Assembly: GCA_902542925.1 (NCBI GenBank)
Contig: CACBWF010000001.1
Location: 41,569-105,568, forward strand
From: an uncultured Alphaproteobacteria bacterium
GTDB lineage: Bacteria > Pseudomonadota > Alphaproteobacteria > Methylaequorales > Methylaequoraceae
Length of the DNA: 64,000 nt
Direction of reading: 5' to 3'
The first letter of the stretch is position 1, and each line of letters begins with the position of its first letter. Made by a program: the position numbers and the translations under genes. Below are positions 17,301 to 53,591 of the stretch, one piece after another. The notes below the pieces were generated by a model, which saw only the letters and a list, made by a program, of their open reading frames with translations, had not been told where the DNA came from and did not search any database.

Positions 17301-17312
17301 AAAAATGCATTA

Positions 17313-24284: not shown

Positions 24285-25037
24285 CTACCATCCCATTATT
24301 AGATTAATAATTTTTTCTCTTTTTTCTTCTAAAAACTTTGTCGGATTAATTGCTCTATCTTTTGAAAAATCTTTCATGATATCATTCTTTGTTTTTGAAA
24401 ATCCGGAATGTATACCTGCCTCATTTCTATCTCGTGCAAAGTGTTCTAAGAAAGAAGTGTTAGATTGGATGAAGGGAACTTTTAATTGGGCTGGCCAATA
24501 ATAATCAAATCCGTATATAGTTTCAAAAAATGGATTATGATTTAAAAAATTTACCATTATTTCAACCATATTTCTATCATAACATTGGCTTACTCCAGGA
24601 CATGTTTTTCTCAAACTAAAATCTTTATTTTGTTCAATAATATTTTCTGATTTATTATGAAATACACTATTAAACAGCCCGATTGGAAATTTTTTTTTTT
24701 GTTTTTTAGAAATATTATAAAAATATCTAAGTTGATTAAGAAACTGTGGATCATGAATAACATCATTATCAGTAATATAAAGCAAATCAAAGTTCTTATA
24801 TATATAACAAAAATCTCTAAAGCATCTTGCTCTTGATCTTTCTATCCCTCCCCTAACTCTGAATCTCAAAATATTTTGAGAATATTTTTTGAGAAATTTT
24901 TCATTATATTCTGTTGATGCATCATCATAAATTAATAATTGAGAATTTTTATCCAATAATTGGGTTAAATTCTCTAGACAAAGCTTGGTAATATTTTTTC
25001 TATTATACGTTGATAAAGCAACAAGAATTTTTTCCAT
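24285..25037 (-). CDS. Glycosyltransferase family 2-like protein
   Basis: VALSTYNR...YDDAST pattern typical of GT-A/GT2 enzymes. Confidence 0.55.
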   Translation of the reverse strand: MEKILVALSTYNRKNITKLCLENLTQLLDKNSQLLIYDDASTEYNEKFLKKYSQNILRFRVRGGIERSRARCFRDFCYIYKNFDLLYITDNDVIHDPQFLNQLRYFYNISKKQKKKFPIGLFNSVFHNKSENIIEQNKDFSLRKTCPGVSQCYDRNMVEIMVNFLNHNPFFETIYGFDYYWPAQLKVPFIQSNTSFLEHFARDRNEAGIHSGFSKTKNDIMKDFSKDRAINPTKFLEEKREKIINLIMGW

Positions 25038-25091
25038 AAACTAAACATTTTTTTATATTAGACGTTTATAGATTTAGTATAATATTAATCT

Positions 25092-25451
25092 TTGAATAAA
25101 GGTATAGTTATGGAAATTTTTACTGAAAAAATGGTTAACCAGATTAAGATTATCGAAAAACTTCTTAATCAGCTTGAAAAAGATCTTAACCATTTAAATA
25201 AACCAAGTAAACTAGACAACGTCTCAGAACTAGTTGAAAGAGTTGGTAAAATTACAACTGTTTTAAAAACTACTCTTGATTTAGAAAAGGGTGGCGACAT
25301 TGCAAAAAATTTACTTCATCTTTATAATCACATTCAATATGCTGCTCAAAGAATCAAAGAACACGAAGATTATTCAGCAGTCAAGAGTGCTCATAAAGTA
25401 GTAAAAGAAATTAATGAAGGATGGTCTAAGCTTTCAACTGCTGCTGCTTAG
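25092..25451 (+). CDS. fliS: Flagellin-specific chaperone FliS
   Basis: LDLEKGGDIAKNLLHLYNHIQYAAQRIKEHEDYSAVKSAHKVVKEINEGW matches the FliS core. Confidence 0.8.
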   Translation: MNKGIVMEIFTEKMVNQIKIIEKLLNQLEKDLNHLNKPSKLDNVSELVERVGKITTVLKTTLDLEKGGDIAKNLLHLYNHIQYAAQRIKEHEDYSAVKSAHKVVKEINEGWSKLSTAAA

Positions 25452-27031
25452 CTTAAAAATTTTTTTACTTCATTATTTATATGTGACCAATCATTGAATT
25501 TTGATTGTCTAACCATTTTTACAGACTTATACCATGGGGTTTTGGAATCTTTCAAACCCCATCTCCAATCTGGTACTTTTGGAAGTAGTAATAATGTTTT
25601 CTGTCCAAGAGTGCCAGCTAAATGAACTAATGACGTATCTATTGTAATCACCTTATCCATTAAACTTAAAACCAAGGCTGTTTGCGAAAAGTCTTCAAGC
25701 TTATTATCAAGGACTTCTACATTTGAAAATTTTTTTAAAAATTTATGTTCCTCATTTGAAACACCTTTTTGTAATACAAAAAATTTACAATCATTATTTT
25801 TGAATATTTCTGAAAATTTTTCGATATGAATTGATCTATTTAGGTGCCTTTTATGTAGAGGGTTCCCAGACCATGAAACTCCAATATTCAATTTACTTTT
25901 ATCAATCCTTTTAGTTAAAAACTTATTAAAATTTACATTAAAACTCTTAAGCCTTTCGACATCAACAATAAGTGGATCAATAATTTTTTTGCTATTTTCC
26001 CAAAATAGATAGGGTAAGCTCATCATAAATATTCGATAGTCAAATGAAGTTTCATCAACATCATCAAATTTGTCTGAAATATTTACACTATCCAGTTCTG
26101 GACAAGATTTAAAAAAATTAATTGTCGATTTGTGTGCAGCAAAACTTACTTTATAATTTTTCTCAAGAAATGATTTTAAGAATCTTGATGCCATAAAATC
26201 GTCGCCATAGCCTTGTTCGCGATGTATTACAATTTTTAGATTTTTTTCTTTAAGATTCTTTTTAGTAAGTTCTGGATATCCATCTCCACCATATTTTACT
26301 AAAAATTTTTCTTTATCTCTATGTTTTTCGTATAATTCAAGGCCTTTATTATAATTACCTTGCAACAATTCAAGTAGAGATAAGTTGAAATTAGCAAAAA
26401 AATTATCTTCTTTTTCTAATGTTTTTTTATAAAATTCTTTTGCTTTTTTAAATTGAGATGTTTCAAAGAAATAAACACCTAAGCCTAAGTGAGCTAGAGC
26501 ATTTTCTTTATCTAAATGCATACAAGTAATAAAACATTCTTTAGCCATTTCAGGTTCTTGTGTTGCAATATAGGCTATACCTAATTGGGCCCAATTGTTT
26601 GGCATTTGTGGTAATTTATGTACACAGTCTGATAAAATATCTTTAGCTTTATACACATCTGCATAATCATGCATTAACATACATGCATAATCAAATGCAA
26701 TCATGTAGCATTCTGGACAATATTGATAACCTTTTTCTAAGATTAAAAATCGTTCTTCTTTCATTTTTTCATGTTCGTAAATCATAGAAAGTTGTAAATA
26801 AGCTTCTTCAAACGATTTGTCATTTTCTAATATTTTCTTAAGTTTTTCTATTGCATCATCATAATTACAAAATTCAATATCATCTAATGCTAAGACGTAA
26901 TTAGCATATGAACTATCCTTTTTTTTATTCAGAATTTCTTCAGCTAGATCTCTTGCTTTTGTAAGATGATTTGTGGAGTCCGGATTCGATATAAATTCTT
27001 TTAAGTTATTTTCTAAGGTTTCAAGATTCAT
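25448..27031 (-). CDS. TPR-repeat protein with C-terminal GT9-like (heptosyltransferase-fold) glycosyltransferase domain; FlmG-like flagellin glycosyltransferase candidate
   Basis: N-terminal TPR repeats. C-terminus NIGVSWSGNPLHKRHL...ITIDTSLVHLAGTLGQKTLLLLPKVPDWRWG resembles the GT9 DSGxxHLAxALG region. Confidence 0.55.
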   Translation of the reverse strand: MNLETLENNLKEFISNPDSTNHLTKARDLAEEILNKKKDSSYANYVLALDDIEFCNYDDAIEKLKKILENDKSFEEAYLQLSMIYEHEKMKEERFLILEKGYQYCPECYMIAFDYACMLMHDYADVYKAKDILSDCVHKLPQMPNNWAQLGIAYIATQEPEMAKECFITCMHLDKENALAHLGLGVYFFETSQFKKAKEFYKKTLEKEDNFFANFNLSLLELLQGNYNKGLELYEKHRDKEKFLVKYGGDGYPELTKKNLKEKNLKIVIHREQGYGDDFMASRFLKSFLEKNYKVSFAAHKSTINFFKSCPELDSVNISDKFDDVDETSFDYRIFMMSLPYLFWENSKKIIDPLIVDVERLKSFNVNFNKFLTKRIDKSKLNIGVSWSGNPLHKRHLNRSIHIEKFSEIFKNNDCKFFVLQKGVSNEEHKFLKKFSNVEVLDNKLEDFSQTALVLSLMDKVITIDTSLVHLAGTLGQKTLLLLPKVPDWRWGLKDSKTPWYKSVKMVRQSKFNDWSHINNEVKKFLS

Positions 27032-27139
27032 TTTTAAACTTTCTAAATTGGTTTACTAATCCCAAAATACTTCAATATTTATGCCAATTATTAGTTTTTT
27101 TTGGCATAAATATTGAAACAATACATTTAAGGTTTTTTA

Positions 27140-28042
27140 ATGATAAGTGTAATAATACCAACATATAATGGCATAGAAAAAGGGCTTGAAAGGTCGATAA
27201 GATCTGTATTAATGCTAAAAAACATAGATGAAGTTATTATAGGAATTGATGGTTCTGATGATACAAGTAATGAATTATGTAATGAACTACAAAAAAAAGA
27301 TAAAAGAATAAAGTACTTTGAAAATAAAAAAAATATTGGATGGGGAAAAACAGCTGCCATTTGTATATCAAAGGTAGGATGTAATCGAACTATAATTCAT
27401 AGTGATGATGATTGGATGCTTCCAGAAATGAATAATCTCATTGAATTTTCTTTAAAAAATAATTTAGATCTAGCATATAGTAAGTATGCTATTGGGAATG
27501 ATCAGACAAAAAAGATCAATATTTTTAGTAATCCTACATGGGAAAAAAAAAATTATATTGGTGAAAAAGATGAGTTTCATGAACTTTTATTACATGACTG
27601 TTATATCGGAAGATCTATAATAAAAACCGAAATTTACAAAAACACTTTTAATCTTAAAGCATTAGAAAACTTAAATAGAGAATTTGGAGAAGAATTTACA
27701 GCAATCGACTATAATTTATTTTTAGACTTATCTTCACAAGATTCTAAATTTGGGTATTTAAACCAAATTACAAATATATGGACCCAACGTGCAAACCAAG
27801 AAACTGGAATGTTTTATAATACCTCGGGAAAACATTTAGGCGAATCTTCTTATCTTTTTAATAAATATTACGATGAAAAAAAACACAGGAAAGATTGGGA
27901 TTTTTTAGGAAGTGTATTTAATCGAGTTAAATATTTATATACGTTTGCAAAAAAAAAAAATAAAAAAATTAATCCGATTTATGAAAATCATTTTAAAGTA
28001 TTTTCAAAAAAAATTAGTTCTTTAAGAGGTTCAAATGTTTAA
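27140..28042 (+). CDS. Glycosyltransferase family 2
   Basis: N-terminus MISVIIPTYNG...IIGIDGSDD. Confidence 0.6.
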   Translation: MISVIIPTYNGIEKGLERSIRSVLMLKNIDEVIIGIDGSDDTSNELCNELQKKDKRIKYFENKKNIGWGKTAAICISKVGCNRTIIHSDDDWMLPEMNNLIEFSLKNNLDLAYSKYAIGNDQTKKINIFSNPTWEKKNYIGEKDEFHELLLHDCYIGRSIIKTEIYKNTFNLKALENLNREFGEEFTAIDYNLFLDLSSQDSKFGYLNQITNIWTQRANQETGMFYNTSGKHLGESSYLFNKYYDEKKHRKDWDFLGSVFNRVKYLYTFAKKKNKKINPIYENHFKVFSKKISSLRGSNV

Positions 28043-29114
28043 AAAAAATTGTCATTTACTTATTACAGGTGGTACAGGGTCATTTGGAAAAGCAATGTTA
28101 GAAAAAATATTATTCAACAAAAATATTTCAAAAATTTCAATACTTAGTAGAGATGAAAAAAAACAAGATGATTTGAGAAAACAATTTAATAACAAAAAGT
28201 TAAATTTTATTTTATGTGACATAAGAGACAGAGAAAATGTTTTTTCTTCAATAAATGATGTTGATTATATTTTTCATGCGGCTGCTTTAAAGCAAGTACC
28301 AAGTTGTGAATTTAATCCAATGGAAGCAGTAAAAACAAACATTTTAGGTGCATTAAATGTAATAGACGCTTCAATAAGAAATAATGTAAAAAAAATTGTG
28401 CTATTAAGTACAGATAAAGCTGCCTATCCAATTAACACTCTAGGGTGTAGTAAAATGTTAATGGAAAAAATTATGTTTGCTAAAACCACAGAAAAGTCAA
28501 AAAACTCAAAAACAATCATTTGTGCAATTAGATATGGAAATGTGCTCTTTTCAAGAGGTTCTGTTGTTCCACTTTTTTTAAAACAACTTAGTGACAATAA
28601 ACCATTAACGATTACAAATCCAAGTATGACAAGATTTTTAATTTCACTATCAGAAGCAATAGATTTGGTTTTATATGCTCTATCACATGGTAAAAATGGT
28701 GATTTATTCATCAGAAAATCAAAAGCCGCTACAATTTTAAATATAGCTAAAGCATGTAGTTTAATGTTTAACAAAGAGTTGAATATAAATTACATAGGAA
28801 TAAGGGAAGGTGAAAAAATGGATGAAACACTTGCAACTAGAGAAGAAGTTGCTAAGTCAGAAGATAGAAATACTTATTTAAGAATACCTCATGAACAATC
28901 TAAAAATTTTAATAAATATTTTACGGAAGGAACTATAACTAAAGAAATTTTTCCATTCACATCTAAAAATACAAAACAACTTTCAATCGAAGAAATTATA
29001 GGTATATTTAAGGCAATTCCTGAAATACAACAAATTTTAAATGTAAATAAACATATGATAAATCTTCCAGTGAATGTAAGCGAAAGTTTTACTAATTCGC
29101 TCCTTATCAATTAG
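28035..29114 (+). CDS. UDP-GlcNAc 4,6-dehydratase of the PseB/LegB/CapD (FlaA1) family
   Basis: N-terminus LLITGGTGSFGK; polysaccharide-biosynthesis SDR family. Confidence 0.7.
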   Translation: MFKKNCHLLITGGTGSFGKAMLEKILFNKNISKISILSRDEKKQDDLRKQFNNKKLNFILCDIRDRENVFSSINDVDYIFHAAALKQVPSCEFNPMEAVKTNILGALNVIDASIRNNVKKIVLLSTDKAAYPINTLGCSKMLMEKIMFAKTTEKSKNSKTIICAIRYGNVLFSRGSVVPLFLKQLSDNKPLTITNPSMTRFLISLSEAIDLVLYALSHGKNGDLFIRKSKAATILNIAKACSLMFNKELNINYIGIREGEKMDETLATREEVAKSEDRNTYLRIPHEQSKNFNKYFTEGTITKEIFPFTSKNTKQLSIEEIIGIFKAIPEIQQILNVNKHMINLPVNVSESFTNSLLIN

Positions 29115-29874
29115 TATTTAATACATCTCCGGGAGATAGGTATTTTTTTTCTTTAGATTTTAAATAATAAGCTTGTTCATAAGGTGGAAAATAACATGCC
29201 CTTACAATTCTATCAATTTTCTTACAATTCCATTTTGGATCAATAATTCTAAGTTTTTCAATTGAATCTTTACTATAAAATTTACCCTGTTTTTTAATTT
29301 TCTTTTTCGGAATGTTATTTTTAATAATTGCTAAAAAAAGTTTTATCAAAATTTCTTCTGCGCATTTTAAAGATTTTTTGTATAAACTTTTAGCGGTTTC
29401 AGATTTACTAATTTTAGTTGAAGATTCAAAAGCTATATCTCCCTCATCAACTTGCTCTGAAACCCAATGAATTGTTGAAGTATACTTTTTATCATTATTT
29501 GCTATCGCAAAATTAATGGAATTATAGCCTTTATAATTTGGAAGTTTTGCATTGTGAAGATTTAGGCATTTATTACCAACTAGTTCTAATATTTTATTTG
29601 ATAAAATCCATTTATGCTGGATTGAAATTAAATAATCTGGAGATAAACTTTTAATTTTTAATGAGATGAGTTTTTCGTTACGTTTTTCATTAGATATAAA
29701 AAAAGTATTTTTAAGGGTATTATTTTTTAAAAATTTTTTTTTTACTTTTGAGTTATAGAAATTTTTATTAGATACAAATCCCAATATCTCTATTTCTTTT
29801 TTAAAATATTTTTTGATTATTCTTAGAGCTATCTCAGTTGTTTTTTTATCGCCAAGTAAGATTATTTTTTTCAT
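29107..29874 (-). CDS. Sugar N-formyltransferase (formyl_trans_N family)
   Basis: Motif NLHNAKLPNYKG corresponds to the HxSLLPxxxG formyltransferase signature. Confidence 0.6.
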   Translation of the reverse strand: MKKIILLGDKKTTEIALRIIKKYFKKEIEILGFVSNKNFYNSKVKKKFLKNNTLKNTFFISNEKRNEKLISLKIKSLSPDYLISIQHKWILSNKILELVGNKCLNLHNAKLPNYKGYNSINFAIANNDKKYTSTIHWVSEQVDEGDIAFESSTKISKSETAKSLYKKSLKCAEEILIKLFLAIIKNNIPKKKIKKQGKFYSKDSIEKLRIIDPKWNCKKIDRIVRACYFPPYEQAYYLKSKEKKYLSPGDVLNTN

Positions 29875-29880
29875 AGGAAA

Positions 29881-30294
29881 TTAATTAATTTCTTTAGAAA
29901 TAGTATCGGGATCATTTGGATCAAATTCTTTTGATGCATAAGCAACCATAATTGCCTCTTCTTTATTTTTATTAATTATTGTATGAGCTGTTCCTGGACC
30001 AACATAAACAAGTTGAGGGCGTTTTGATTTTAATATTTTTTTTATTTTTTTGCCGTTTGCTTTCATTAATAAAGTAACCGTACCTGCAACACAACAAAAC
30101 CATTCTCCTTTTCTTTCGTGATAATGATCCCCTCTCCTAAAGCCAGGCATAACGCTATAGACATATATCTGTCCACCATTAGGTATTTTTTCTGACTTAA
30201 ATCTTAGTGCTTCAAACAGAGCACCTCTACTATCTGAGTATAATTTTAAGTCTTTAATTTTATAATCTATATTTTCTGTAAAGTGCATATCCAT
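29881..30294 (-). CDS. Cupin-fold WxcM/FdtA/QdtA-like sugar 3,4-ketoisomerase
   Basis: 137 aa. GDHYHERKGEWFCCVAGT resembles FdtA-type ketoisomerases. Confidence 0.5.
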   Translation of the reverse strand: MDMHFTENIDYKIKDLKLYSDSRGALFEALRFKSEKIPNGGQIYVYSVMPGFRRGDHYHERKGEWFCCVAGTVTLLMKANGKKIKKILKSKRPQLVYVGPGTAHTIINKNKEEAIMVAYASKEFDPNDPDTISKEIN

Positions 30295-30299
30295 TTTTT

Positions 30300-31442
30300 T
30301 TACCCTACCAAATTCATGGAATTAGCACCCCAAACTTCTTTTTTAATGATTTTTGACATACCTAAAATAATTCTTACAATTTTTTTTGAAACTTCTTTTT
30401 GTATGTAGGCTTCGGGTGGTGAAGAGAAATTAAAATTTATTGGTTTTTTGCAAATTATTCCTAACATCCTTAAAACATCATCTTGGTCTAAACCTGTGAT
30501 TGGACAATATCCTGCTTCAATTGACTCTTGCTTTTCAGTAGACTTTCTAATTGCTATTGCAGGAAATTTTAGTACAGCTGAATCTTCATGAATGGTTCCA
30601 CTATCAGAAATTACACATTTCGACTCTTTTTGTAGTTTTATAAAATCAACTAAACCAAAAGGTTTGTGCCATATTATTTTTTGGTTTGATTTTTTAATTA
30701 GACCTGAATTAATTAATTTAGTTTTTGTTCTTGGATGAGTGCTCACTACAATTGGAATTTTATATTTTTTTATGATAGCATTAAAAGTTTCTACAAGTTT
30801 CTTCAAAGAGTCTACACTTTCAACATTTTCCTCTCTGTGGATACTTGCTGTAAAAAATTGATTGGTATTGAGACCAAGTTTATTTAAAATTTTACTTTTT
30901 TCAAACTTGAAACCTAAATCGTTATATACTTCAATAATTGGACTCCCAACCACATAAATATTTTTTGGGTGAATACCTTCTCTTAATAGATTTCTTCTGC
31001 TTTGTTCGCTATAAGCAATATTAACATCGCTAGTATGATCAATAATCCTTCTATTTAGTTCCTCAGGTACTTCGTTATCATAAGAGCGGTCTCCAGCTTC
31101 AATGTGAAAAATTGGAATTTTTTTTCTCTTTGCTGCAATTGCACTTAGACCTGAATTTGTGTCACCTAGAATCAAAACTGCATCAGGATTTTCAACGTCC
31201 ATTACTTCCCCAGTACTGCTTATAATTTTTGCTATTTGATCTTGAATGTTTTGAGATTTTGATTTTAAGTTATAATTTGGTAGTCTTAATCCTAAATCTT
31301 TAAAAAAGATACGGTTAAGATTATAGTCATAATTTTGTCCAGTATGTACCAATATATGATTACAATGTTCGTCTAATTCTTTTATTATTTTTGCTAAACG
31401 AATAATTTCTGGTCTTGTACCCAGTATTGTCATTATTTTCAT
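30300..31442 (-). CDS. UDP-N-acetylglucosamine 2-epimerase family protein (WecB/NeuC/LegG type)
   Basis: N-terminus MKIMTILGTRPEIIRLAKII is characteristic of the 2-epimerase family. Confidence 0.7.
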   Translation of the reverse strand: MKIMTILGTRPEIIRLAKIIKELDEHCNHILVHTGQNYDYNLNRIFFKDLGLRLPNYNLKSKSQNIQDQIAKIISSTGEVMDVENPDAVLILGDTNSGLSAIAAKRKKIPIFHIEAGDRSYDNEVPEELNRRIIDHTSDVNIAYSEQSRRNLLREGIHPKNIYVVGSPIIEVYNDLGFKFEKSKILNKLGLNTNQFFTASIHREENVESVDSLKKLVETFNAIIKKYKIPIVVSTHPRTKTKLINSGLIKKSNQKIIWHKPFGLVDFIKLQKESKCVISDSGTIHEDSAVLKFPAIAIRKSTEKQESIEAGYCPITGLDQDDVLRMLGIICKKPINFNFSSPPEAYIQKEVSKKIVRIILGMSKIIKKEVWGANSMNLVG

Positions 31443-32560: not shown

Positions 32561-32671
32561 TGTATTAAAAATATTTTTAAAAATATAATCTAAAACTTCA
32601 ATTATTATGCCAAATCCTGCTAAAACTGTTAAAAAAAATCTATTTTAAGTCGTACTCAATTAGAGGTTAAT

Positions 32672-33448: not shown

Positions 33449-33508
33449 ACTAAATATTTTTTTTTTACGTCGTTATTATTAGTAACTATTAAACGAAAGG
33501 TTGATGGA

Positions 33509-33940
33509 ATGAAAAAAAATGAATATAAAACACAAGTTGAGACAAGTAAAACTCTTCTAAAAAAAGAAACAAACTTAAATAACGTAGTTCGAAATGATAT
33601 ACCAAAATATGAAATTATAAAGCAGCTAATTGTAGGTCTGGAAAGTGAATTTGTAAATTTAAAAAAAATAGTTTCGGTTGACTTTGAAGTAAATGACGAA
33701 GCAGTAGAAAAAGCTGAAAAAATATCAAAAATTGCTTTTGCGTTGCAGAGTTGTCTTAATGTTGATAAGGGTGAGGAAATAGCTGTAAATTTAACGTGGT
33801 TATACAGATTTGTTAGATATAGTTGTAAACGAATTATTGATAATGAAGATTTAACATATGTTAAACCAGCACACCTAGTAGCAAGAAATCTTAAAGAGGG
33901 TTGGTTAAATATGCCCGAAGAATCAAGACAAATAAATTAA
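33509..33940 (+). CDS. fliS: Flagellin-specific chaperone FliS (second paralog)
   Basis: LNVDKGEEIAVNLTWLYRFVRYSCKRIIDNEDLTYVKPAHLVARNLKEGW. Confidence 0.7.
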   Translation: MKKNEYKTQVETSKTLLKKETNLNNVVRNDIPKYEIIKQLIVGLESEFVNLKKIVSVDFEVNDEAVEKAEKISKIAFALQSCLNVDKGEEIAVNLTWLYRFVRYSCKRIIDNEDLTYVKPAHLVARNLKEGWLNMPEESRQIN

Positions 33941-33955
33941 TTTTTTTATACCTTA

Positions 33956-36757: not shown

Positions 36758-36769
36758 TAAAGTCCTAAC

Positions 36770-37615: not shown

Positions 37616-37643
37616 GGCTTAAAATTTGCTAAATTAATAGTCT

Positions 37644-39344: not shown

Positions 39345-39347
39345 GTC

Positions 39348-40031: not shown

Positions 40032-40087
40032 GAAAATATAAAATCTAATACTTTGAGTGAATAGAAAAATAAAGACTTTTATACATA

Positions 40088-42833: not shown

Positions 42834-42881
42834 AATTGTTATCTTTTTGGTGGCATATATATTGCTCAATTACTTAAAAGT

Positions 42882-44342: not shown

Positions 44343-44383
44343 AATTTAGGCACTGTAATTGCAATAATAAATAAAGGTTTTTT

Positions 44384-46410: not shown

Positions 46411-46417
46411 ATATACT

Positions 46418-47509
46418 ATGAGTGAAAAATTTTTAATTACAGGGGGTGCTGGTTTTATAGGTTCTGCTTTTTGTAGATTTTTAATTAATAAAACGAACAA
46501 CAAGGCAGTAATAGTTGACAAATTTTCTTATGGTTCAAATAAAAACTCATTATCAACAATTAAGAATTCTAAGAGAGTAAAAATATATGCTGAAGATTTA
46601 TGTGAATATGAAGCTGTAAAGAAAATTTTAATAAAAGAAAAACCTGACAAAATTATACATTTTGCAGCAGAAACACATGTTGATCATTCAATTGAAAATC
46701 CAAAAAAGTTTTTTATGAATAATTTACTTGCTACTTTTAATTTACTAGAGATAACAAAACATTATTATACAACATATCATAAAAATAAAAAATTTCTTTT
46801 TCATCATGTGTCAACAGATGAAGTGTTTGGTGATTCATTCGATCAATCAGTAAAATCGACAGAAAGTTCTGCTTATCTACCAAATTCACCTTACTCTGCA
46901 ACAAAGGCTGGTTCAGATCATTTAGTTAGAGCATGGGGGAAAACTTTTTGCCTACCAGTTACAATTTCATACTCTTCAAATAATTTTGGATCTTTTCAAG
47001 CAAATGATAAATTAATTCCAAAAGTTATTAAAAATGCTATTGAAGAAAAAACAATTCCAATTTATGGTGATGGATTACAAAAAAGAAACTGGATATATGT
47101 CGATGATAATGTTTCTGCAATTTATAAAATAGCTACTAAGTCTTCAGCTGGAGAAAAATATAATATTGCTGGAATTAATGAAATTACAAACATCGACGTT
47201 GTTAAAATGATTTGTAAAAAAATAGATTATTATTTCCTTAAAAAATATAAAATTTTAAGACAATCACATAAATTAATCAGATTTGTTAATGATCGAGTCG
47301 CACATGATAAGGTTTATAGTATTGATTCAAGTAAAATTAGAAAAAAATTTAAATGGAATGAAGTTGAAAACTTTGAATCAAATCTAGAAAAAACAATAAA
47401 ATGGTATTTTGAAAATTCTGTTTTTGATTTACCAAAAACTCAAGAAATCAATTCAAATTATTTAAATATTTCTAAGACGAAAGAAAATGGAAATTTTTTA
47501 AATATATAG
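46418..47509 (+). CDS. rmlB: dTDP-glucose 4,6-dehydratase (RmlB family)
   Basis: FLITGGAGFIGS Rossmann motif. YSATK catalytic YxxxK. Confidence 0.75.
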   Translation: MSEKFLITGGAGFIGSAFCRFLINKTNNKAVIVDKFSYGSNKNSLSTIKNSKRVKIYAEDLCEYEAVKKILIKEKPDKIIHFAAETHVDHSIENPKKFFMNNLLATFNLLEITKHYYTTYHKNKKFLFHHVSTDEVFGDSFDQSVKSTESSAYLPNSPYSATKAGSDHLVRAWGKTFCLPVTISYSSNNFGSFQANDKLIPKVIKNAIEEKTIPIYGDGLQKRNWIYVDDNVSAIYKIATKSSAGEKYNIAGINEITNIDVVKMICKKIDYYFLKKYKILRQSHKLIRFVNDRVAHDKVYSIDSSKIRKKFKWNEVENFESNLEKTIKWYFENSVFDLPKTQEINSNYLNISKTKENGNFLNI

Positions 47510-47527
47510 GATTAAGAAAGGTTTAAC

Positions 47528-48313
47528 ATGACTAAAAATTTAATTGTAGAGATAAATCAAGATATTGGAGAAAAATCTGACAAAATTCAAAGTGTGCTTT
47601 CTGAAAAAAACTTTTGTATCATTAGAGGTGCGATAGATCCAAAGATAGTTAAGAATGGGATAAAAAAAGTTAAAAAATATATTGAAAAAAATGATGATAA
47701 TCCCGTTACTGGTGAATCACCTTCAGCGGTTAGAGATTATTTCATGAAACTTTCTTTGGGTGAGGCAAGACATAGTGGAAAGAAAATCGATAAAAAGTTT
47801 AATATAGTTAGACCGAGATTTAAAAGAGTAATCTATAGTCCATTATTTAAACAGGACATATTTAAACTAGATGAAGTTTTTATTCGATTTGCAAAAATTA
47901 GAAATTTTTTAATGGGAGTAGATCCTGAATATGCCTTAAGAGAAGATAAAACTAACAAAATGTGGACAGCATCAAGAATACATCAGTTTCCGAGTGGAGG
48001 AGGATTCATGAGTTCACATGTTGATACTGTGCTACCCTCTATAATTAAAAAGGATTCAATAGGAAAAGGTTTTTTTCAACCAATCTTAATAATGAGTCAA
48101 AAAGGGAAAGATTTTGAAAGCGGTGGTGGTTTTGCAAAAATAGATGGAAATAATGTTATTTATGAGGATTTCACAGAAATAGGAGATATTGCAATCTATA
48201 ACTCGTTTACTGAACACGGCTGCTTTGATATTGATACACATAAACCTTTCTTTCAAAGATCTGGAAATGGAAGATTTTCTGGGTTATGTACGCTATATAA
48301 AACTTTAAATTAG
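47528..48313 (+). CDS. Hypothetical protein, possible Fe(II)/2-oxoglutarate oxygenase (PhyH-like)
   Basis: HxD (SHVDT) followed by a distal His (TEHG) facial-triad-like spacing. Confidence 0.3.
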   Translation: MTKNLIVEINQDIGEKSDKIQSVLSEKNFCIIRGAIDPKIVKNGIKKVKKYIEKNDDNPVTGESPSAVRDYFMKLSLGEARHSGKKIDKKFNIVRPRFKRVIYSPLFKQDIFKLDEVFIRFAKIRNFLMGVDPEYALREDKTNKMWTASRIHQFPSGGGFMSSHVDTVLPSIIKKDSIGKGFFQPILIMSQKGKDFESGGGFAKIDGNNVIYEDFTEIGDIAIYNSFTEHGCFDIDTHKPFFQRSGNGRFSGLCTLYKTLN

Positions 48314-48352
48314 ATAGTCTAAAATAAAAATTGGAAATTTAATTTTTAGGAA

Positions 48353-49108
48353 TTACTCAACTTCAAAATAACTTTGCCACGTAGAATTGATGTGGGGAAT
48401 TCTTTTGAATCTCAACTTAATATCACTTAATTCTTCTATGATAGCTGACATTTCACCTGAAAATTCTGGATGACACGTTTCATCAACTATAACAATACTA
48501 CCTTTAAATAATCTGTTCTTTATTTTTTGTATAACAAATTTTGTTGAAGATGAAATATTTAAATCAAGATGTACCATTGCAAAATATTGATGTTTATTTT
48601 TTTCTAAAAAAGGTTCTAATGTATTTTCTACTGAGCCTTTAATAAGGTTAAATTTTTGAGTTTGAGGTAGAGGATTTAATTGTTCCCTCACCTTTAAAAG
48701 TTTATTCAGGTATTTCTCATAATTTTTTGAAACAGCTAAACCTCCAGTTTTAATTAATTTTGTTTGATCTTTTTTTTTAATTTTTGGATATCCAGTAAAG
48801 GTATCAAATCCATAAATTGATCTAGAATGATTAAATGGTTCAAAGATCGTTCTAAGCATCTCAAATAATGCTAATTCTCTTCCCCATCTAACACCAAATT
48901 GTATAATTGAACCAGGCATACCAATAATTTTTTTATATATTTCATAAAAAAAAATTTCTCTTTTTTTATGTTGTACTGTAGTAAAAAGATTTAGATTTTC
49001 TAGAATCTCGTTTTCATTAATTGCAGAAGATTTATACAAATTATATATCTCATCCTCAGCCTTTAGGTATTCTTTTGTACTTATTCCTCTTTTAGATGCT
49101 CTATCCAT
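48353..49108 (-). CDS. TylF/MycF family O-methyltransferase (macrocin-O-methyltransferase-like)
   Basis: GSIIQFGVRWGRELALFEML...YGFDTFTGYP matches the TylF signature. Confidence 0.6.
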   Translation of the reverse strand: MDRASKRGISTKEYLKAEDEIYNLYKSSAINENEILENLNLFTTVQHKKREIFFYEIYKKIIGMPGSIIQFGVRWGRELALFEMLRTIFEPFNHSRSIYGFDTFTGYPKIKKKDQTKLIKTGGLAVSKNYEKYLNKLLKVREQLNPLPQTQKFNLIKGSVENTLEPFLEKNKHQYFAMVHLDLNISSSTKFVIQKIKNRLFKGSIVIVDETCHPEFSGEMSAIIEELSDIKLRFKRIPHINSTWQSYFEVE

Positions 49109-49134
49109 TTTAAAAAATTAATTCTAAGTTATTC

Positions 49135-50064
49135 CTATAAGGTCATTTGAACGAAACTAGTATCTTTGTCACCAATCATTTTTGATTTTTCATTAAATAA
49201 AAAGAAATTCCCCCAGATATTAATATCTAATTCAACATCTCTAAGTTTGTAATTTCTAGGAAATTTAATTTTAAGTCCAATTATATTTCTTCCTTTTTTA
49301 TCCTTTTTAAGTTCCCCATTTTCTTGGTTTTGCGTAATAACTTCCCAAGCTTTACATCTATACATGTGGAGCCCTGTGTGATTGACGGTTGATCCGGCTA
49401 TTAATGGAACAGGCGAACGTTTTTGATGGCTCTTTAACCACTTGCATCCAGCATTTTTTCTCTCACTGAGGTTAAAGTTCTTGTCCTTTTTAACAATAAA
49501 AGAGTTTTCAATTCCTCCTATTTGCATCATTTTACCTTTTTTACAATCGAATCCTGCATAAATCAAACTTTGTAAAAATACGGGCAATATGCATGTATTT
49601 ATATGACCCTCAACAAAGCGCTCTACAGGGTGCTTAGGTCCAGAAATTATTAAAATAGAATGGTCATGCATTATATCAAAAATTTTATCTAGGAATTGAC
49701 CTATATTTCTCTGGTGTTCTATCACATGAGAACAATAAATAACATCGTACTTGGATTTAAAACTATATTCATTAAAATCCTCGTTAATTTCTGCATCTTT
49801 TTTATATTTATCTATTTGATCAACTTTAATTCCGAAAGATCTCATCAATTTTGTTTGATAACCTTCACCACTTCCAATATCAAGCGCAGTTGTATATTTT
49901 TTTGGATTTTTTGAGTATTCTGATAAAAGAAATTCTATTAAGGCAAAACCACCATAATTTAACCTAATATCACTTTTTTTTAAATTAGATTTAAATTGAC
50001 GTAAATAAATTGTCTTTAAGGCATCAATAGATCTCATAGTTAAAGTTCGCAATTTTTGTACCAA
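49135..50064 (-). CDS. Class I SAM-dependent methyltransferase with C-terminal extension
   Basis: Motif I LDIGSGEGYQT. Confidence 0.55.
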   Translation of the reverse strand: MVQKLRTLTMRSIDALKTIYLRQFKSNLKKSDIRLNYGGFALIEFLLSEYSKNPKKYTTALDIGSGEGYQTKLMRSFGIKVDQIDKYKKDAEINEDFNEYSFKSKYDVIYCSHVIEHQRNIGQFLDKIFDIMHDHSILIISGPKHPVERFVEGHINTCILPVFLQSLIYAGFDCKKGKMMQIGGIENSFIVKKDKNFNLSERKNAGCKWLKSHQKRSPVPLIAGSTVNHTGLHMYRCKAWEVITQNQENGELKKDKKGRNIIGLKIKFPRNYKLRDVELDINIWGNFFLFNEKSKMIGDKDTSFVQMTL

Positions 50065-50105
50065 AATTAGTTTTTTGTATTTTTCAAATATGGTAAATTT
50101 TAGTA

Positions 50106-50801
50106 ATGCAAAAAATTAAACTTATCATTTTTGATGTTAATCAAACCATGTTTAGTTTAAACAAAATTGAAAATGAATTTAATAACCTCGGAATCAGTCC
50201 ACTCTATTGTGATATCTGGTTTAATTCAGTTCTAAAAGAAGGATTTGCATTAAATAATATTAACAAATTTATTACCTTTAAAGACATTGGCATTTCAATT
50301 TTAACGAATATCTTAAATATTAATCAGATTAGAAACTCTGAAGAAATATCAAAAAAAATTATCAAAAATTTTAATAAATTAGAACCAGTTAATGGTCTGG
50401 GTAAAAGTTTAAGGAATTTTAGTCTTTTAAATATAAAAATGGCAACATTAACAAACGGTAATAAAGATACAACATATGAATTGTTGGTGAAAAATAATTT
50501 AGATAAATTTATAACAAAAACATTCTCTATAGACGATGTAGAATGCTGGAAGCCTTCTCCGAAGCCTTACCTAATGGTAACAAAGTATTTTGGTATAAAA
50601 CCTGAAAATACTTTAATGGTTGCGTGTCATAGCTGGGATTTAGAAGGTGCAAAAAACGTTGGATTACAAATTGGTTATGTAAAGAAAACTCCTGAAGTAT
50701 TACCTGAATATATTCACTCACCTGATTATCAGGGTAAGAATATTCTTGAATTATCTAAAGATGTTTTAAGGAGCCAACAGAAATTAATTACTTCCATTTA
50801 A
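50106..50801 (+). CDS. HAD superfamily hydrolase (haloacid dehalogenase-like)
   Basis: Motif I IIFDVNQTMF at the N-terminus. Confidence 0.45.
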   Translation: MQKIKLIIFDVNQTMFSLNKIENEFNNLGISPLYCDIWFNSVLKEGFALNNINKFITFKDIGISILTNILNINQIRNSEEISKKIIKNFNKLEPVNGLGKSLRNFSLLNIKMATLTNGNKDTTYELLVKNNLDKFITKTFSIDDVECWKPSPKPYLMVTKYFGIKPENTLMVACHSWDLEGAKNVGLQIGYVKKTPEVLPEYIHSPDYQGKNILELSKDVLRSQQKLITSI

Positions 50802-51336
50802 TACTACAACCCATACTAGGGAATTGTTCTTTTGGACCAATTCCATTTTTACTGATTGCCAACATTGCATTAAATAATTCATTAATGCTATTAACTTTTT
50901 TTAAATTATTTAGTTTTGTTAATCTTCCTCTATATTGGAGTTCGTTTTCTGAATTATATCCAAAAAAATCTGGTGTACATACTGCTTCATAATTTTTAGC
51001 GACTTCTTGATTTTTATCAATCAAATAAGGAAAGTTAAAATTATATTTTTTAGAAAATTTGATCATATTTTCAGGATTATCTTCTGGATATTTTTCATAA
51101 TCGTTTGGCATAATAGCAATTGTATTAATTCCCAACTTTTTTATATCATTTGTTGTTTTTATAATATCTTCAATGATTGCTTTAACATATGGACAATGAT
51201 TGCACATAAATATTATTAAAGTGCCATTTTTACCTAAATTGTTGATCAGGGAAATCTTTTCATTATTTGCTGAAAATAATGAAAAAGGTATTATTTTTTT
51301 TCCAAAGTCACAAACAGGAGAATATTTCAAACTCAT
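50788..51336 (-). CDS. Thioredoxin-fold redoxin (AhpC/TSA family-like)
   Basis: CNHCPYV CxxC motif. Confidence 0.55.
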   Translation of the reverse strand: MSLKYSPVCDFGKKIIPFSLFSANNEKISLINNLGKNGTLIIFMCNHCPYVKAIIEDIIKTTNDIKKLGINTIAIMPNDYEKYPEDNPENMIKFSKKYNFNFPYLIDKNQEVAKNYEAVCTPDFFGYNSENELQYRGRLTKLNNLKKVNSINELFNAMLAISKNGIGPKEQFPSMGCSIKWK

Positions 51337-51755
51337 ATGCTATCTCCCAAAATATGAAGCTGTATATTTCTATTTTTCATACTTCTTCTATGTTCAAAAA
51401 AATAAATACCTTGCCATTGCCCTAAAACAATGCATTGATTGACTACAGAAAATGTGAGGTGGTTTTGTGTTAGTAGTGATCTTAAATGTGCAGGCATATC
51501 ATCTTTTCCTTCAGTATTATGTTTATAATTTATACTTTCTGGACATAATTGATCAAAAAATTCAAGCACATCTTGCCTTACCGAATAATCAGCATTTTCT
51601 TGTACGATTAATGATGCACTAGTGTGTAAAACTGTTATATTCAACAAACCATCTTTAATATGACTTTTTTTTACAAAATCATCAACTATAGCAGTAATAT
51701 CATACAAATCTTTACCATTGGTTGATATTGAAATTTGTTTTCTTTTTTGAAACAT
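51333..51755 (-). CDS. YjbQ/UPF0047 family protein
   Basis: HTSASLIVQENADYSVRQD...MPAHLRSLL...LGQWQGIYFFEHR matches the family pattern. Confidence 0.8.
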   Translation of the reverse strand: MFQKRKQISISTNGKDLYDITAIVDDFVKKSHIKDGLLNITVLHTSASLIVQENADYSVRQDVLEFFDQLCPESINYKHNTEGKDDMPAHLRSLLTQNHLTFSVVNQCIVLGQWQGIYFFEHRRSMKNRNIQLHILGDSI

Positions 51756-52006
51756 TAAGTAATTTCTACTCTAATTTTACACAATAAATTAACTTGACAT
51801 AGTAATCTATATGTTTTGTAATTACTAGGTAGTTTTTTGGTAACTAGATCAAATTACAACGAAAGGAAAAAAAATGGCTAAATCAGAAAAAAAAGATTCT
51901 GGAGCATCTAATATGAAGAAGGAAGATGTAAAAGAGGTCTTTTCAAGAGTACTCAAAAAATTAAAGAACAGATAAAGTTCTTTTTGGAGACAGTTGTTTT
52001 AAATAA

Positions 52007-52147
52007 ATGTCTAAACTATGGGTAGAATGCCAAAAATGCGGTAAAATCTTTTGGGTTTACGCTTCTGAGTTTCATATAATTTACCCAAAACGTAGTATTA
52101 ACTATCAGTTATGCGGGGCTTGTGAAAATGATTCAAAATCATCATGA
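52007..52147 (+). CDS. Small zinc-ribbon protein (46 aa; missing from the ORF track because it is short)
   Basis: MSKLWVECQKCGKIF...YQLCGACEN has two CxxC pairs. Stop overlaps the next gene's start (ATGA). Confidence 0.35.
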   Translation: MSKLWVECQKCGKIFWVYASEFHIIYPKRSINYQLCGACENDSKSS

Positions 52148-52884
52148 ATAACCATGAGTCAATTACATTTGTATTAACAAGTTGTGGTAGACCAGAGCTA
52201 TTAGATAGAACATTAAAGTCATTTTTTAAATTCAATAAATTTAAAATTAACAAGTACTATATTGTAGAAGATTCTTTAGATAAAACATTCCACAATAGTT
52301 TAAGAAAAAAATGGGGAAATAAAATTGATTTCATTTTTAATACTCAAAAAAAAGGACAAATAAAGTCTATAATAGATACATACAAATTAATTAAAACACC
52401 TTATGTTTTTCATTGCGAGGATGATTGGATTTATACCAGATCAGGTTTTATTGAAGAATCAATTCAAATTCTTAAAAAAGACAAAAACATCATTCAAGTC
52501 TGGTTGGAAAGTAAAAAAAGTGCTAGTAGGTTAGATATTTTTTCATACGGTAAAAAAATTAAGCATAAAAATACTGAATTTTCAGAAGTGACTTGTAAAA
52601 GTGGATGGGAATGGGGACATTTTTCTTTTAGGCCTGGAGTAAAAAGAATGTCTGATTATAATAAAATTGGAGGGTATGGTCGTTTTAAAAATGAATTAGA
52701 TATAAGCGTTGAATACAAAAAACTTGGTTATTATACAGTCATAATGCAAAAACCTGCAGTAATAGATATAGGAGACGATCATCATGTTTCTGATCCTACA
52801 AGAAAATGGCCAAAAAGAAGAAAGAAAAATGCTCCAACCGGTCTAAAAAGATTATGGGGACACATAAAAAAGATGAAGTTTTAA
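52144..52884 (+). CDS. Hypothetical protein (possibly a GT-A-like transferase)
   Basis: Acidic HCEDDW motif only; weak. Confidence 0.3.
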   Translation: MNNHESITFVLTSCGRPELLDRTLKSFFKFNKFKINKYYIVEDSLDKTFHNSLRKKWGNKIDFIFNTQKKGQIKSIIDTYKLIKTPYVFHCEDDWIYTRSGFIEESIQILKKDKNIIQVWLESKKSASRLDIFSYGKKIKHKNTEFSEVTCKSGWEWGHFSFRPGVKRMSDYNKIGGYGRFKNELDISVEYKKLGYYTVIMQKPAVIDIGDDHHVSDPTRKWPKRRKKNAPTGLKRLWGHIKKMKF

Positions 52885-53591
52885 TCTAAGTTATTTTCAC
52901 TTGGAATAAAAAAACAAGTAAGATGATAAAAAGAAACCAACTTATATTTTTTAGAAATTAAGAATTTATATACATCGCTTTTTTTTATTATCTCTATCTC
53001 ATTGCCATGAATCTCAACTGTTATTAATTTGGGCCTGAATTGTTTAAAGTCAAAGCCTTTCAAAACTTTAATTTCATGAGACTCAACATCAATATTTAAA
53101 TATTCAAAATTTTTGCTAGATGTATTGTCAGAAATAATTGATGTAAGTGTATCACTTCTAATTTTTACAGTCTTATATTTTTTATTAATTTTCTTTGACC
53201 AAATTTCAGCATATTTTTTTTCAAGAGTATTTAAGCCAGATCCAACATCAAAAATATAAGATTCTAGTATTTTTTTTTTATCTGAAACTGCAATTTGGAT
53301 TGAAATGTCTCTTTTTCTTGTAAGTTTAAAAAGTTTTATATTTTCTTCAGTCAAATCTATATTGATTCCACTCCAACCCTTTTTATATAGTTGGTATGTT
53401 AAAGATCCAACTCTTGGATTTAAAGCACCTACATCTACATAAAAACCTAGATCTATATTTTTAAAAATTCTATTAACAAGTATTTCCTCACCAAATGCAG
53501 AGTGTGAAACAAATGGCCTAAACTTGTACATTCTATATAAACTATAAAGAATTGTAGGTTTGATAAATTGTTCTTTAAAATATTTAAACAT
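52881..53591 (-). CDS. FkbM family methyltransferase
   Basis: FYVDVGALNPRVGSLT resembles the FkbM-domain SAM-binding segment. Confidence 0.5.
   Translation of the reverse strand: MFKYFKEQFIKPTILYSLYRMYKFRPFVSHSAFGEEILVNRIFKNIDLGFYVDVGALNPRVGSLTYQLYKKGWSGINIDLTEENIKLFKLTRKRDISIQIAVSDKKKILESYIFDVGSGLNTLEKKYAEIWSKKINKKYKTVKIRSDTLTSIISDNTSSKNFEYLNIDVESHEIKVLKGFDFKQFRPKLITVEIHGNEIEIIKKSDVYKFLISKKYKLVSFYHLTCFFIPSENNLD

Follow-up and report, generated by a model that had tools for sequence, protein, structure and literature searches.

The stretch of DNA described here occupies positions 24285-53591 of a 64-kb window (the whole piece of DNA that was analyzed, in whose coordinates positions are given) from an uncultured marine alphaproteobacterium with a GC content of about 29%. 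It begins next to fliD, the filament cap gene that closes a block of flagellar structural genes, and holds 33 open reading frames (ORFs), about 24 of which encode glycosyltransferases, nucleotide-sugar enzymes or modifying enzymes. Families were called by Pfam and NCBIfam scans of ORFs; statements that a family is absent from the window refer to ORFs of at least 100 aa. Four of the glycan assignments are weakly supported (hyp486, hyp261, hyp246 and a HAD phosphatase), and four other genes are neither glycan-related nor flagellar by family (a ClC channel, hyp113, an AhpC/TSA protein and a UPF0047 protein). Interleaved with the glycan genes are a 258-aa flagellin (flagellin258), three FliS paralogs and a small gene at the position usual for FliT. 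A first-pass annotation of this DNA had called almost every gene glycan-related and had placed flagellin, fliD and fliS among the glycan genes. The gene inventory agrees with the first statement, and with the second for flagellin and fliS; fliD adjoins the stretch from outside. All features are listed in Table 1.

Two of the encoded enzymes, TPR-GT_527 and TPR-GT_566, join an N-terminal tetratricopeptide repeat (TPR) domain to a glycosyltransferase (GT) domain of GT-B type. The AlphaFold2 (AF2) model of TPR-GT_527, built from 47 homologues, has a predicted local distance difference test score (pLDDT) of 93 and consists of a TPR superhelix (residues 1-247) followed by two Rossmann-like lobes (258-527). 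Its best full-length Foldseek matches in the PDB are SPINDLY and OGT, both of which are TPR + GT-B protein O-glycosyltransferases. When a profile of the complete TPR-GT alignment was searched against PDB sequences, TPR proteins dominated the matches, and the search was uninformative on the GT domain. The second enzyme, TPR-GT_566, is a paralog of the first, with 30% identity over residues 205-549, the catalytic half (E=5e-29). Caulobacter FlmG is a 596-aa protein in which a TPR domain (1-313) binds flagellin (PMC7591256) and a GT-B domain (309-596) gives donor specificity (PMC7591256; bioRxiv 10.1101/2022.03.25.485807). Judged by architecture and gene context against that published description, both enzymes appear FlmG-like; FlmG is not among the names of the database matches. 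In two related loci (L001 and L003), the TPR-GT_527 orthologue has the first FliS gene (FliS_a) and flagellin258 as its immediate neighbors. We propose TPR-GT_527 as a candidate flagellin O-glycosyltransferase.

Transmembrane (TM)-like segments are absent from all 24 glycan proteins, and the sole membrane protein within the stretch is the ClC channel, a non-glycan gene of the conserved backbone. Pfam matches in the stretch include no flippase, polymerase, ABC exporter, initiating phosphoglycosyl transferase or ligase family. A set of exclusively soluble enzymes with no export machinery is in keeping with the glycosylation of proteins in the cytoplasm and speaks against an envelope-polysaccharide locus that is complete in itself. 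We think it probable that this stretch is the accessory half of the flagellar cluster and performs cytoplasmic O-glycosylation of flagellin. The earlier suggestion, a locus for flagellin glycosylation that is physically linked to flagellin, FliS and FlmG-like genes, thus holds, and it gains further support from the TPR + GT-B transferases and from sigma-54-type promoters shared with flagellar genes (see below).

The cassettes could alternatively serve a cell-envelope polysaccharide, either lipopolysaccharide (LPS) O-antigen or capsule, and merely neighbor the flagellar genes, with the membrane steps encoded elsewhere. FnlA/FnlC, RmlA/RmlB/WecE and family 25 glycosyltransferases (GT25) are classic components of O-antigen and enterobacterial-common-antigen synthesis, and genes shared by LPS and flagellin glycosylation occur, for example, in Aeromonas caviae and Burkholderia (PMC3958885). 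However, Wzx/Wzy, Wzm/Wzt, an initiating transferase and a ligase are all missing from the stretch, as are TM segments in glycan proteins, and flagellin and FliS genes lie among the cassettes, which are paired with TPR + GT-B enzymes and preceded by the same promoter type as flgG, flgL and flagellin. We regard an envelope role of this kind as improbable.

In the proposed mechanism of flagellin glycosylation, TPR-GT_527 and TPR-GT_566 would bind unfolded flagellin through the TPR superhelix, as Caulobacter FlmG does, and transfer a sugar onto Ser/Thr residues. The main acceptor would probably be the Ser/Thr-rich flagellin258 encoded beside the transferases, in which Ser and Thr make up 24% of residues overall and 43% of residues 151-180, about twice the 13-15% of the two remaining short flagellins. 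The glycan would be extended by further soluble GT-A enzymes and possibly by a GT41-like enzyme, and the three FliS paralogs would chaperone different flagellins. FliS_a shares 34% identity with FliS_b, neither of them is significantly similar to FliS_c, and all three are conserved in the relatives whose contigs reach them; three divergent FliS proteins alongside four flagellins suggest flagellin-specific chaperones. The transferases may instead have other or additional targets (FlgK, FliD, the 514-aa flagellin514 or non-flagellar proteins), in which case flagellin258 would not be the specific acceptor. The Ser+Thr content of FlgK (24%), FliD (25%) and flagellin514 (21%) would allow this, there are two or three protein-glycosyltransferase-like enzymes and four flagellins, and distant members of the TPR-GT family occur outside flagellar loci. 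Yet the TPR-GT_527 orthologue directly adjoins flagellin258 in relatives that lack the cassettes, and published FlmG binds flagellins via its TPR domain (PMC7591256). This possibility, which overlaps with flagellin glycosylation rather than excluding it, seems to us rather unlikely.

Table 1. Features of the 64-kb window, in window coordinates, with strand and the evidence for each assignment (TM, transmembrane; SAM, S-adenosylmethionine).
Feature	Position	Strand	Evidence or content
Housekeeping block	1-9155		SLT, Hsp20, two ABC transport systems, SBF symporter
Flagellar structural block	9291-24277		FlgG, FlgH, FlgI, rod-binding FlgJ, 1689-aa FlgK, FlgL, conserved 166-aa gene, short flagellins of 262 and 261 aa, 514-aa flagellin, FliD
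FlgK	12231-17300		1689 aa
166-aa gene (hyp166)	18626-19126	-	no family match
FliD filament cap	22598-24277	+	Pfam FliD_N, FliD_C; last structural gene, left anchor
Glycan/flagellar accessory stretch	24285-53591		33 ORFs
GT2_250, GT-A (family 2) glycosyltransferase, 250 aa, soluble	24285-25037	-	Glycos_transf_2 27.4 bits (cutoff 23.3)
FliS paralog a (FliS_a)	25092-25451	+	Pfam FliS E=1.2e-12; after FliD in all relatives
TPR-GT_527, TPR + GT-B transferase, 527 aa	25448-27031	-	TPR Pfam matches, weak Glyco_transf_9
Sigma-54-type -24/-12 motif pair TGGCATAAATATTGA	27072-27116		perfect 15-nt palindrome; facing TPR-GT_527 and GT2_300
Cassette A	27140-32560		six genes
GT2_300, GT-A (family 2) glycosyltransferase, 300 aa	27140-28042	+	Glycos_transf_2 E=7.5e-19; 8-nt overlap with next gene
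UDP-GlcNAc 4,6-dehydratase, FnlA/PseB type	28035-29114	+	Polysacc_synt_2 E=3e-96
Sugar N-formyltransferase	29107-29874	-	Formyl_trans_N E=1.9e-22
Small cupin, FnlB/WbcJ C-terminal-domain-like, FdtA-like	29881-30294	-	Polysacc_synt_C, FdtA; NCBIfam WbcJ C-terminal region
Non-hydrolysing UDP-GlcNAc-type 2-epimerase, WecB/FnlC type	30300-31442	-	TIGR00236 wecB 246.2 bits (cutoff 210.15)
DegT_a, DegT-family sugar aminotransferase	31439-32560	-	DegT_DnrJ_EryC1 E=5e-80; NCBIfam best PseC, below cutoff
Motif, DegT_a	32598-32612	-	
Flagellin258, short flagellin, 258 aa	32672-33448	+	Pfam Flagellin_N, Flagellin_C
FliS paralog b (FliS_b)	33509-33940	+	Pfam FliS E=1.1e-7
ClC chloride channel + CBS domain	34178-35692	+	Voltage_CLC E=1e-69; 8 TM-like segments
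hyp113, 113 aa, conserved	35689-36030	-	no Pfam match; 37-71% identity in relatives
Motif, FliS_c	35947-35961		inside hyp113
FliS paralog c (FliS_c)	36022-36462	+	Pfam FliS E=4.4e-15; conserved in relatives
hyp100, 100 aa, overlaps FliS_c	36455-36757	+	usual FliT position, no family match; conserved in relatives
Cassette B	36770-50801		fourteen genes
GT25, family 25 glycosyltransferase, 281 aa	36770-37615	-	Glyco_transf_25 24.6 bits (cutoff 24)
Motif, GT25	37600-37614		
TPR-GT_566, second TPR + GT-B transferase, 566 aa	37644-39344	+	strong TPR Pfam matches
Sulfotransferase	39348-40031	+	Sulfotransfer_2 E=8e-9
Haem-oxygenase-like iron enzyme	40088-40876	+	Pfam Haem_oxygenas_2
Motif, iron enzyme	40089-40103		
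SAM methyltransferase	40851-41594	+	Pfam Methyltransf_25
ATP-grasp ligase	41595-42833	+	ATP-grasp families weak in Pfam and NCBIfam
Motif, hyp486	42851-42865		
hyp486, 486 aa, helical domain + GT-B (tentatively GT41-like)	42882-44342	+	no Pfam family
Motif, RmlA	44349		GGCAC-N5-TTGC
RmlA	44384-45277	+	NCBIfam best match rmlA, below cutoff
WecE-type dTDP-4-amino-4,6-dideoxyhexose transaminase	45277-46410	+	PRK11706 479.8 (cutoff 375); TIGR02379 436.4 (cutoff 434.85)
RmlB	46418-47509	+	TIGR01181 372.8 bits (cutoff 365.1)
hyp261, 261 aa, without assigned family	from 47528	+	Pfam scan
TylF-type O-methyltransferase	48353-49108	-	Pfam
MT23, SAM methyltransferase	49135-50064	-	Pfam
Motif, MT23	50049-50063		
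HAD phosphatase	50106-50801	+	Pfam
AhpC/TSA peroxiredoxin-like + UPF0047 (YjbQ)	50788-51755	-	Pfam; conserved backbone, non-glycan
hyp246, probable GT-A glycosyltransferase	52144-52884	+	Glycos_transf_2 E=0.01, below cutoff
FkbM methyltransferase	52881-53591	-	FkbM domain E=8e-15
Housekeeping block	53860-64000		DUF2784, guaA, guaB, ftsJ, ppx, RND pump, CDP-alcohol transferase
Further motif positions	819, 9237, 17314, 20958		
Homopolymer tracts	24690-24700, 27949-27960, 29734-29743, 38001-38012, 39940-39950, 41249-41265, 44132-44142, 45862-45872		

The glycan genes supply clues to the donor sugars. Cassette A would make a UDP-2-acetamido-4-formamido-2,4,6-trideoxyhexose through its dehydratase, aminotransferase, formyltransferase, cupin and WecB-type 2-epimerase. 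In NCBIfam the dehydratase matches FnlA with 377 bits and PseB with 307 bits, both under the curated cutoffs, and the best matches of the formyltransferase, also below cutoff, are ArnA-type and dTDP-4-amino-sugar formyltransferases. The 2-epimerase scores 88.5 bits against NeuC (cutoff 235.9); curated cutoffs are exceeded by the WecB, RmlB and WecE-type transaminase assignments. The gene set resembles the UDP-L-FucNAc pathway FnlA/FnlB/FnlC (CapE/F/G, WbjB/C/D) in having a dehydratase like FnlA, a 2-epimerase like FnlC/WecB and a cupin that resembles the C-terminal part of FnlB, and differs from it in that the FnlB reductase domain is missing from the window; an aminotransferase and a formyltransferase are found instead, predicting a 4-formamido rather than a 4-hydroxy sugar. 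A sister species (L030) offers a direct comparison: its positions 1075-4405, set against 28035-32560 of the window, encode FnlA, a 374-aa SDR + cupin FnlB-like reductase, and FnlC. The difference looks like an exchange of a reductase for a transaminase and formylase that would alter the C4 substituent of the sugar. Because the window, at the place of the L030 reductase, carries a cupin-only gene along with an aminotransferase and a formyltransferase, the cassette A product is probably the 4-formamido analogue of a FucNAc-type UDP-sugar.

In cassette B, RmlA, RmlB and the WecE-type transaminase would yield a dTDP-4-amino-4,6-dideoxyhexose, which could be decorated further by the ATP-grasp ligase, three methyltransferases, the sulfotransferase and the iron oxidase-like enzyme. 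The sulfotransferase is 75% identical in L010 and adjoins a TPR-GT there too. Orthologues of the MT23 methyltransferase (51-52% identity), again with a sigma-54-type motif upstream, are found in L004, L006, L007 and L008. For hyp486, an AF2 model based on an alignment of 5 sequences reached a pLDDT of 58, and its top Foldseek matches were bacterial OGT, SPY and NGT (TM-scores 0.35-0.41), so that we tentatively consider it a GT41-like glycosyltransferase. This protein is extremely rare (5.8 billion proteins contain only 4 clusters of it), and the contexts seen for it are all glycan-related; one relative carries an N-terminal TPR match, and the motifs WSLKFHPN, FCREELI and GHG..EA are conserved. 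Among the glycan genes outside the cassettes, GT2_250 (no TM segment) adjoins FliD also in L001 and L003, with 61% identity, and the pair of hyp246 and the FkbM methyltransferase is kept in L010 (70% and 63% identity).

Promoter motifs tie the cassettes to the flagellar genes. The sigma-54-type pattern GGCAY-N5-TTGM has 13 matches in the window against 0.99 expected (~13-fold), a count reached by none of 100 shuffles, and the longer TGGCAY-N5-TTGM has 11 against 0.41 expected, also reached by no shuffle. Counting one TGGTAC variant, 13 of 14 matches lie 13-104 nt upstream of, or at, a gene start in the right orientation. The genes so marked are Hsp20, flgG, flgL, flagellin514, TPR-GT_527, GT2_300, DegT_a, FliS_c, GT25, the iron enzyme, hyp486, RmlA and MT23; at -12, TTGC is replaced by TTGA in three cassette A sites. 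The position of the motif upstream of flgL, flagellin514, FliS_c, TPR-GT, GT2_300 and MT23 is conserved in relatives with 44-79% protein identity, and the motif seen between TPR-GT_527 and GT2_300 is also upstream of the orthologues in L001, L029, L030 and L034. This promoter type serves late flagellar genes in Caulobacter. Its presence on cassette operons suggests that the cassettes belong to the flagellar regulon, and sugar synthesis would coincide with flagellar assembly, given that these operons share a promoter type with flgG, flgL and the 514-aa flagellin. In several cases the spacing between motif and start codon is only ~13 nt, namely for flgL and MT23 in relatives and, in the window, for the iron enzyme, GT25 and MT23 if translation begins at a downstream ATG; the resulting mRNAs would have a very short leader or none. 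A sigma-28-like -10 element (GTCGTT) upstream of flagellin262, fliD, flagellin258 and FliS_b was rejected, its 6 occurrences being indistinguishable from the 3.3 expected by chance.

Several points weigh against flagellin glycosylation as outlined above. The GT domain of TPR-GT_527 matches Pfam GT9 weakly (E=0.0016, below cutoff) and by itself has no significant match among PDB sequences. Two distant TPR-GT family members (P0079 and P0087) are outside flagellar contexts; the idea that the wider family is always flagellar was rejected on account of these two, and family membership alone therefore does not imply a flagellin target. Characterized FlmG enzymes use CMP-pseudaminic or CMP-legionaminic acid (PMC7591256; bioRxiv 10.1101/2022.03.25.485807), and the 64 kb contain no NeuB/PseI/LegI synthase or CMP-transferase. 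Because LPS O-antigen synthesis, too, typically employs FnlABC- and Rml-type pathways and GT25 enzymes, the sugars could also go, in part or entirely, to envelope glycans with membrane steps encoded elsewhere. Sigma-54 dependence is read from the motif, and neither rpoN nor an activator is encoded in the 64-kb window. What the analysis shows directly are the gene families and their architecture, the synteny, the base composition and the promoter motifs; the acceptor, the donors and the regulation are inferred.

The Caulobacter crescentus/Brevundimonas FlmG system is similar in being alphaproteobacterial, with several short flagellins (~260-270 aa) and a soluble TPR + GT-B transferase of similar size (596 aa vs. 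527 and 566 aa here) that is encoded with flagellar genes, and FlmG glycosylation is cytoplasmic, before export. It uses pseudaminic or legionaminic acid from CMP donors, in contrast to the UDP- and dTDP-activated 6-deoxy-amino-hexose pathways predicted here, and it has one transferase where, comparing published architecture, there are two paralogous ones here. The two paralogs are candidate FlmG-like enzymes and may work with UDP or dTDP donors in place of CMP-nonulosonates.

The glycosylation island for Pseudomonas aeruginosa a-type flagellin and the P. syringae islands for glycosylation and viosamine likewise place glycosyltransferases and a dTDP-4-amino-4,6-dideoxyhexose pathway within or beside the flgL-fliC-fliD region, include a methyltransferase and N-acylating enzymes, and are polymorphic in content between lineages (PMC3958885; PMC3927599). 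A modified dTDP-viosamine pathway serves flagellin in both species (PMC3958885; PMC3927599), and P. aeruginosa a-type flagellin is reported to bear amino- and formyl-substituted deoxyhexoses (PMC3958885). Within a single species, those islands differ from strain to strain or from pathovar to pathovar, whereas gene content here is fixed within the sampled species, and their acylation set is of the ACP/KAS/reductase kind, as against the ATP-grasp ligase, sulfotransferase and iron enzyme here.

The flagellar glycosylation locus of Campylobacter jejuni is also a large cluster beside flagellins in an AT-rich genome, with many modifying enzymes and with long homopolymer tracts in glycan genes. Phase variation through poly-G tracts is established in Campylobacter; the poly-A length differences seen here may be sequencing errors. 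Its Maf (MAF_flag10) transferases and nonulosonic acids set it apart, since neither family is in the window. Taken together, the present locus is distinguished from known islands by two TPR-GTs, predicted UDP and dTDP donors, three FliS paralogs and species-fixed content. About 20 kb beside the flagellins would be devoted to filament decoration despite a GC content of ~29% and tightly packed genes. A more elaborate version of flagellin glycosylation, which as a whole we consider doubtful, would have two or possibly three modules, each with an FlmG-like TPR-GT and its own non-nonulosonate donor, and with poly-A tracts as phase switches. The donors may then be a UDP-4-formamido-FucNAc-type sugar and a methylated, sulfated or acylated dTDP-4-amino-4,6-dideoxyhexose, and each module may have its own FliS, so that flagellin paralogs of one filament get different glycans.

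To see how the locus varies between species, we compared relatives. A FliD scan of species-representative genomes yielded eight uncultured marine alphaproteobacterial metagenome-assembled genomes (MAGs) and single-cell genomes (SAGs) with 49-60% FliD identity, and a metagenome scan with the ClC protein added one near-identical contig and three more distant ones; ORFs were compared by local BLAST. The first cultured match of GuaB is Telmatospirillum (65% identity). Assignments to AEGEAN-169/HIMB59 and to the free-living Rickettsiales family Mitibacteraceae were rejected, as the literature searched lent them no support and Mitibacteraceae are described as having a higher GC content. The shared gene order is FlgK, FlgL, hyp166, short flagellins, flagellin514, FliD, GT2_250, FliS_a, TPR-GT_527, flagellin258, FliS_b, ClC, hyp113, FliS_c, hyp100, a variable site, AhpC/TSA and UPF0047, with GT2_250 and TPR-GT_527 not in every relative. 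About one-quarter of the stretch is backbone conserved in all relatives. AhpC/TSA and UPF0047 form the right edge of the variable site and are kept after it in L002, L003, L010 and L011; in the more distant L004, L006, L007 and L008, FliS_c is followed, with or without hyp100, by an MT23 homologue.

Cassette A is absent from L001 and L003, where the TPR-GT_527 orthologue (43-44% identical) abuts flagellin258, and from L002, which also lacks that orthologue. In L030 (TPR-GT 64% identical), cassette A consists of FnlA, the FnlB-like reductase described above, FnlC and GT2_300; in L033 (59%) it is as in the window over the part covered by a 7-kb contig. At the cassette B site, L010 has only a TPR-GT (the TPR-GT_566 orthologue, 55% identical) and the sulfotransferase, L011 a different set of GT2, DegT and SDR genes, L002 two other TPR-GTs, and L003 only a 171-aa gene. 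The locus is thus a conserved flagellar backbone with two insertion sites, at which the sugar cassettes differ between species. Filament decoration appears to be remodeled between species at these two fixed sites, for example by exchanging a reductase for an aminotransferase and formyltransferase, and this would fit selection on the filament surface, e.g., by flagellotropic phages or grazers.

Within the species, gene content does not vary. The exact flagellin258 protein is found on at least 23 contigs; nine of these, with DNA available and from different samples, are collinear with the window at 98.6-99.5% identity, and no gene-content indels were found across the nine loci, through which contigs of 48-401 kb run. 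All conspecific contigs retrieved (L009/L016, L013-L015, L017-L024 and L034-L036, from more than 10 samples) are collinear at 98.6-99.98% identity, with one diverged SAG at 95.3% overall. Several of them were retrieved via identical flagellin258, so the sample is possibly biased toward carriers of the same island; anchors outside the glycan cassettes (DUF2784 and AhpC) retrieved three single-cell genomes with the same gene order as the window, and a contig with a 94% identical TPR-GT also keeps the order. Cassette content is therefore fixed within the sampled species, the opposite of a strain-hypervariable region. The first-pass annotation had likened the stretch to hypervariable regions and pointed to strain synteny as a check; every conspecific contig or SAG with DNA keeps the gene order without content differences, and variability is found only between species or genera, at the two cassette sites.

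The same annotation described a compositionally distinct, very low-GC island and named uniform GC and codon usage across the window as a refuting outcome; for codon usage, uniformity is indeed what the analysis shows. The stretch is indeed more AT-rich than the flagellar structural block (27.2 vs. 35.4% GC), and the embedded flagellin258 keeps a higher GC content than its neighbors (36.7%; GC at third codon positions, GC3, 0.193), as do flagellins in every related genome (0.35-0.44 vs. 0.25-0.31). The housekeeping flanks, however, have 27.6% and 28.3% GC, GC3 is 0.184, 0.170, 0.174 and 0.167 across the four blocks in window order, and relative synonymous codon usage (RSCU) correlates at 0.977-0.992 between blocks and at 0.984-0.99 between each cassette and housekeeping genes. 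Glycan and housekeeping genes have median GC contents of 26.6 and 28.0% (Mann-Whitney p=0.14) and GC3 of 17.5 and 17.4% (p=0.55). The compositional outliers are instead the flagellar structural genes, which differ from housekeeping genes in GC (p=1.2e-5) but not GC3 (p=0.7), their excess lying entirely at codon positions 1 and 2 (GC12 0.443 vs. 0.330, p=1.4e-5). In these genes Gly+Ala+Arg+Pro amount to 23% (15-17% elsewhere in the window) and Phe+Tyr+Met+Ile+Asn+Lys to 26% (38-42% elsewhere). The GC excess arises because the proteins are rich in Ala, Gly, Thr and Ser, and the same amino-acid effect accounts for flagellin258. Since GC, GC3 and RSCU of the stretch equal those of the flanks, the apparent low-GC island is normal genome composition beside unusual proteins, and the locus is native rather than foreign in composition. 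More generally, GC contrasts within AT-rich genomes can arise from protein composition alone, and third codon positions should be checked first.

Scans around the stretch revealed no tRNA gene, no Rfam element and only low-complexity AT-rich chance repeats, and Pfam matches of the window ORFs include no integrase or transposase family. These results bear on a further explanation, that the 29 kb are a compositionally foreign, horizontally acquired and strain-hypervariable island like those of streamlined marine genomes. It would account for the differences in cassette content among related species at two fixed sites, for the slightly lower GC of cassette B (26.2 vs. 28.0% in the flanks) and for the mosaic identity in two single-cell genomes described below. 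The uniform composition, the lack of mobility signs, the collinear conspecific loci on contigs of up to 401 kb and the share of conserved backbone all speak against it, and we consider it highly improbable.

The mosaic identity was seen over window positions 44-64 kb in two genomes only. In SAG L022 (CABZJY010000014.1), identity is 98.4-99.5% in cassette B, ~96-98% at 49-53 kb and 91-93% in the guaA-to-RND flank; in SAG L023 (CACAUC010000002.1), the flank is 99.9-100% identical and the MT23 gene 96.2%. This pattern suggests that island alleles are carried from one lineage to another by homologous recombination.

Seven glycan genes contain sense-strand poly-A tracts of 11-17 nt, compared to one such tract in 19.6 kb of flanks. 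An enrichment of homopolymers in general was rejected, as tracts of at least 9 or at least 10 nt are equally frequent in the flanks and only those of at least 11 nt are commoner in the island (7 vs. 1), numbers too small to decide the matter. Tract lengths differ between assemblies, causing frameshifts in TPR-GT_566 (A11 in MDTE01, A13 and A14 in two long-read contigs), the methyltransferase at 40851 (A18 in L014) and the formyltransferase (T10 to T11 in MDTE01). These differences could be phase variation or homopolymer sequencing error.

Several minor observations concern the flagellar backbone and its neighbors. In all related genomes with contigs extending that far (L001-L004, L006-L008 and L010-L012), FliS_b and FliS_c are separated by the ClC channel and hyp113, a conserved membrane-channel insert in a flagellar locus. 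In the 388-nt gap between UPF0047 and hyp246 (51756-52143), a small Lys-rich ORF of 33 aa is called in the conspecific contigs L022-L024. A MAG labeled Flavobacteriales (L005, PBAP01000021.1) carries the same flagellar cluster, with FlgK 62% and FlgL 68% identical; this contig is probably mis-binned. FlgK is a giant protein of 1689 aa with a long Ser/Thr-rich central region (24% Ser+Thr) and Flagellin_IN motifs, and its large size is kept in relatives, where ORFs cut by contig ends reach 1273-1568 aa with 59-64% identity. The 166-aa gene between flgL and the first flagellin is 41-63% identical in the relatives that cover it; alphaproteobacteria often encode flagellin regulators at this position.

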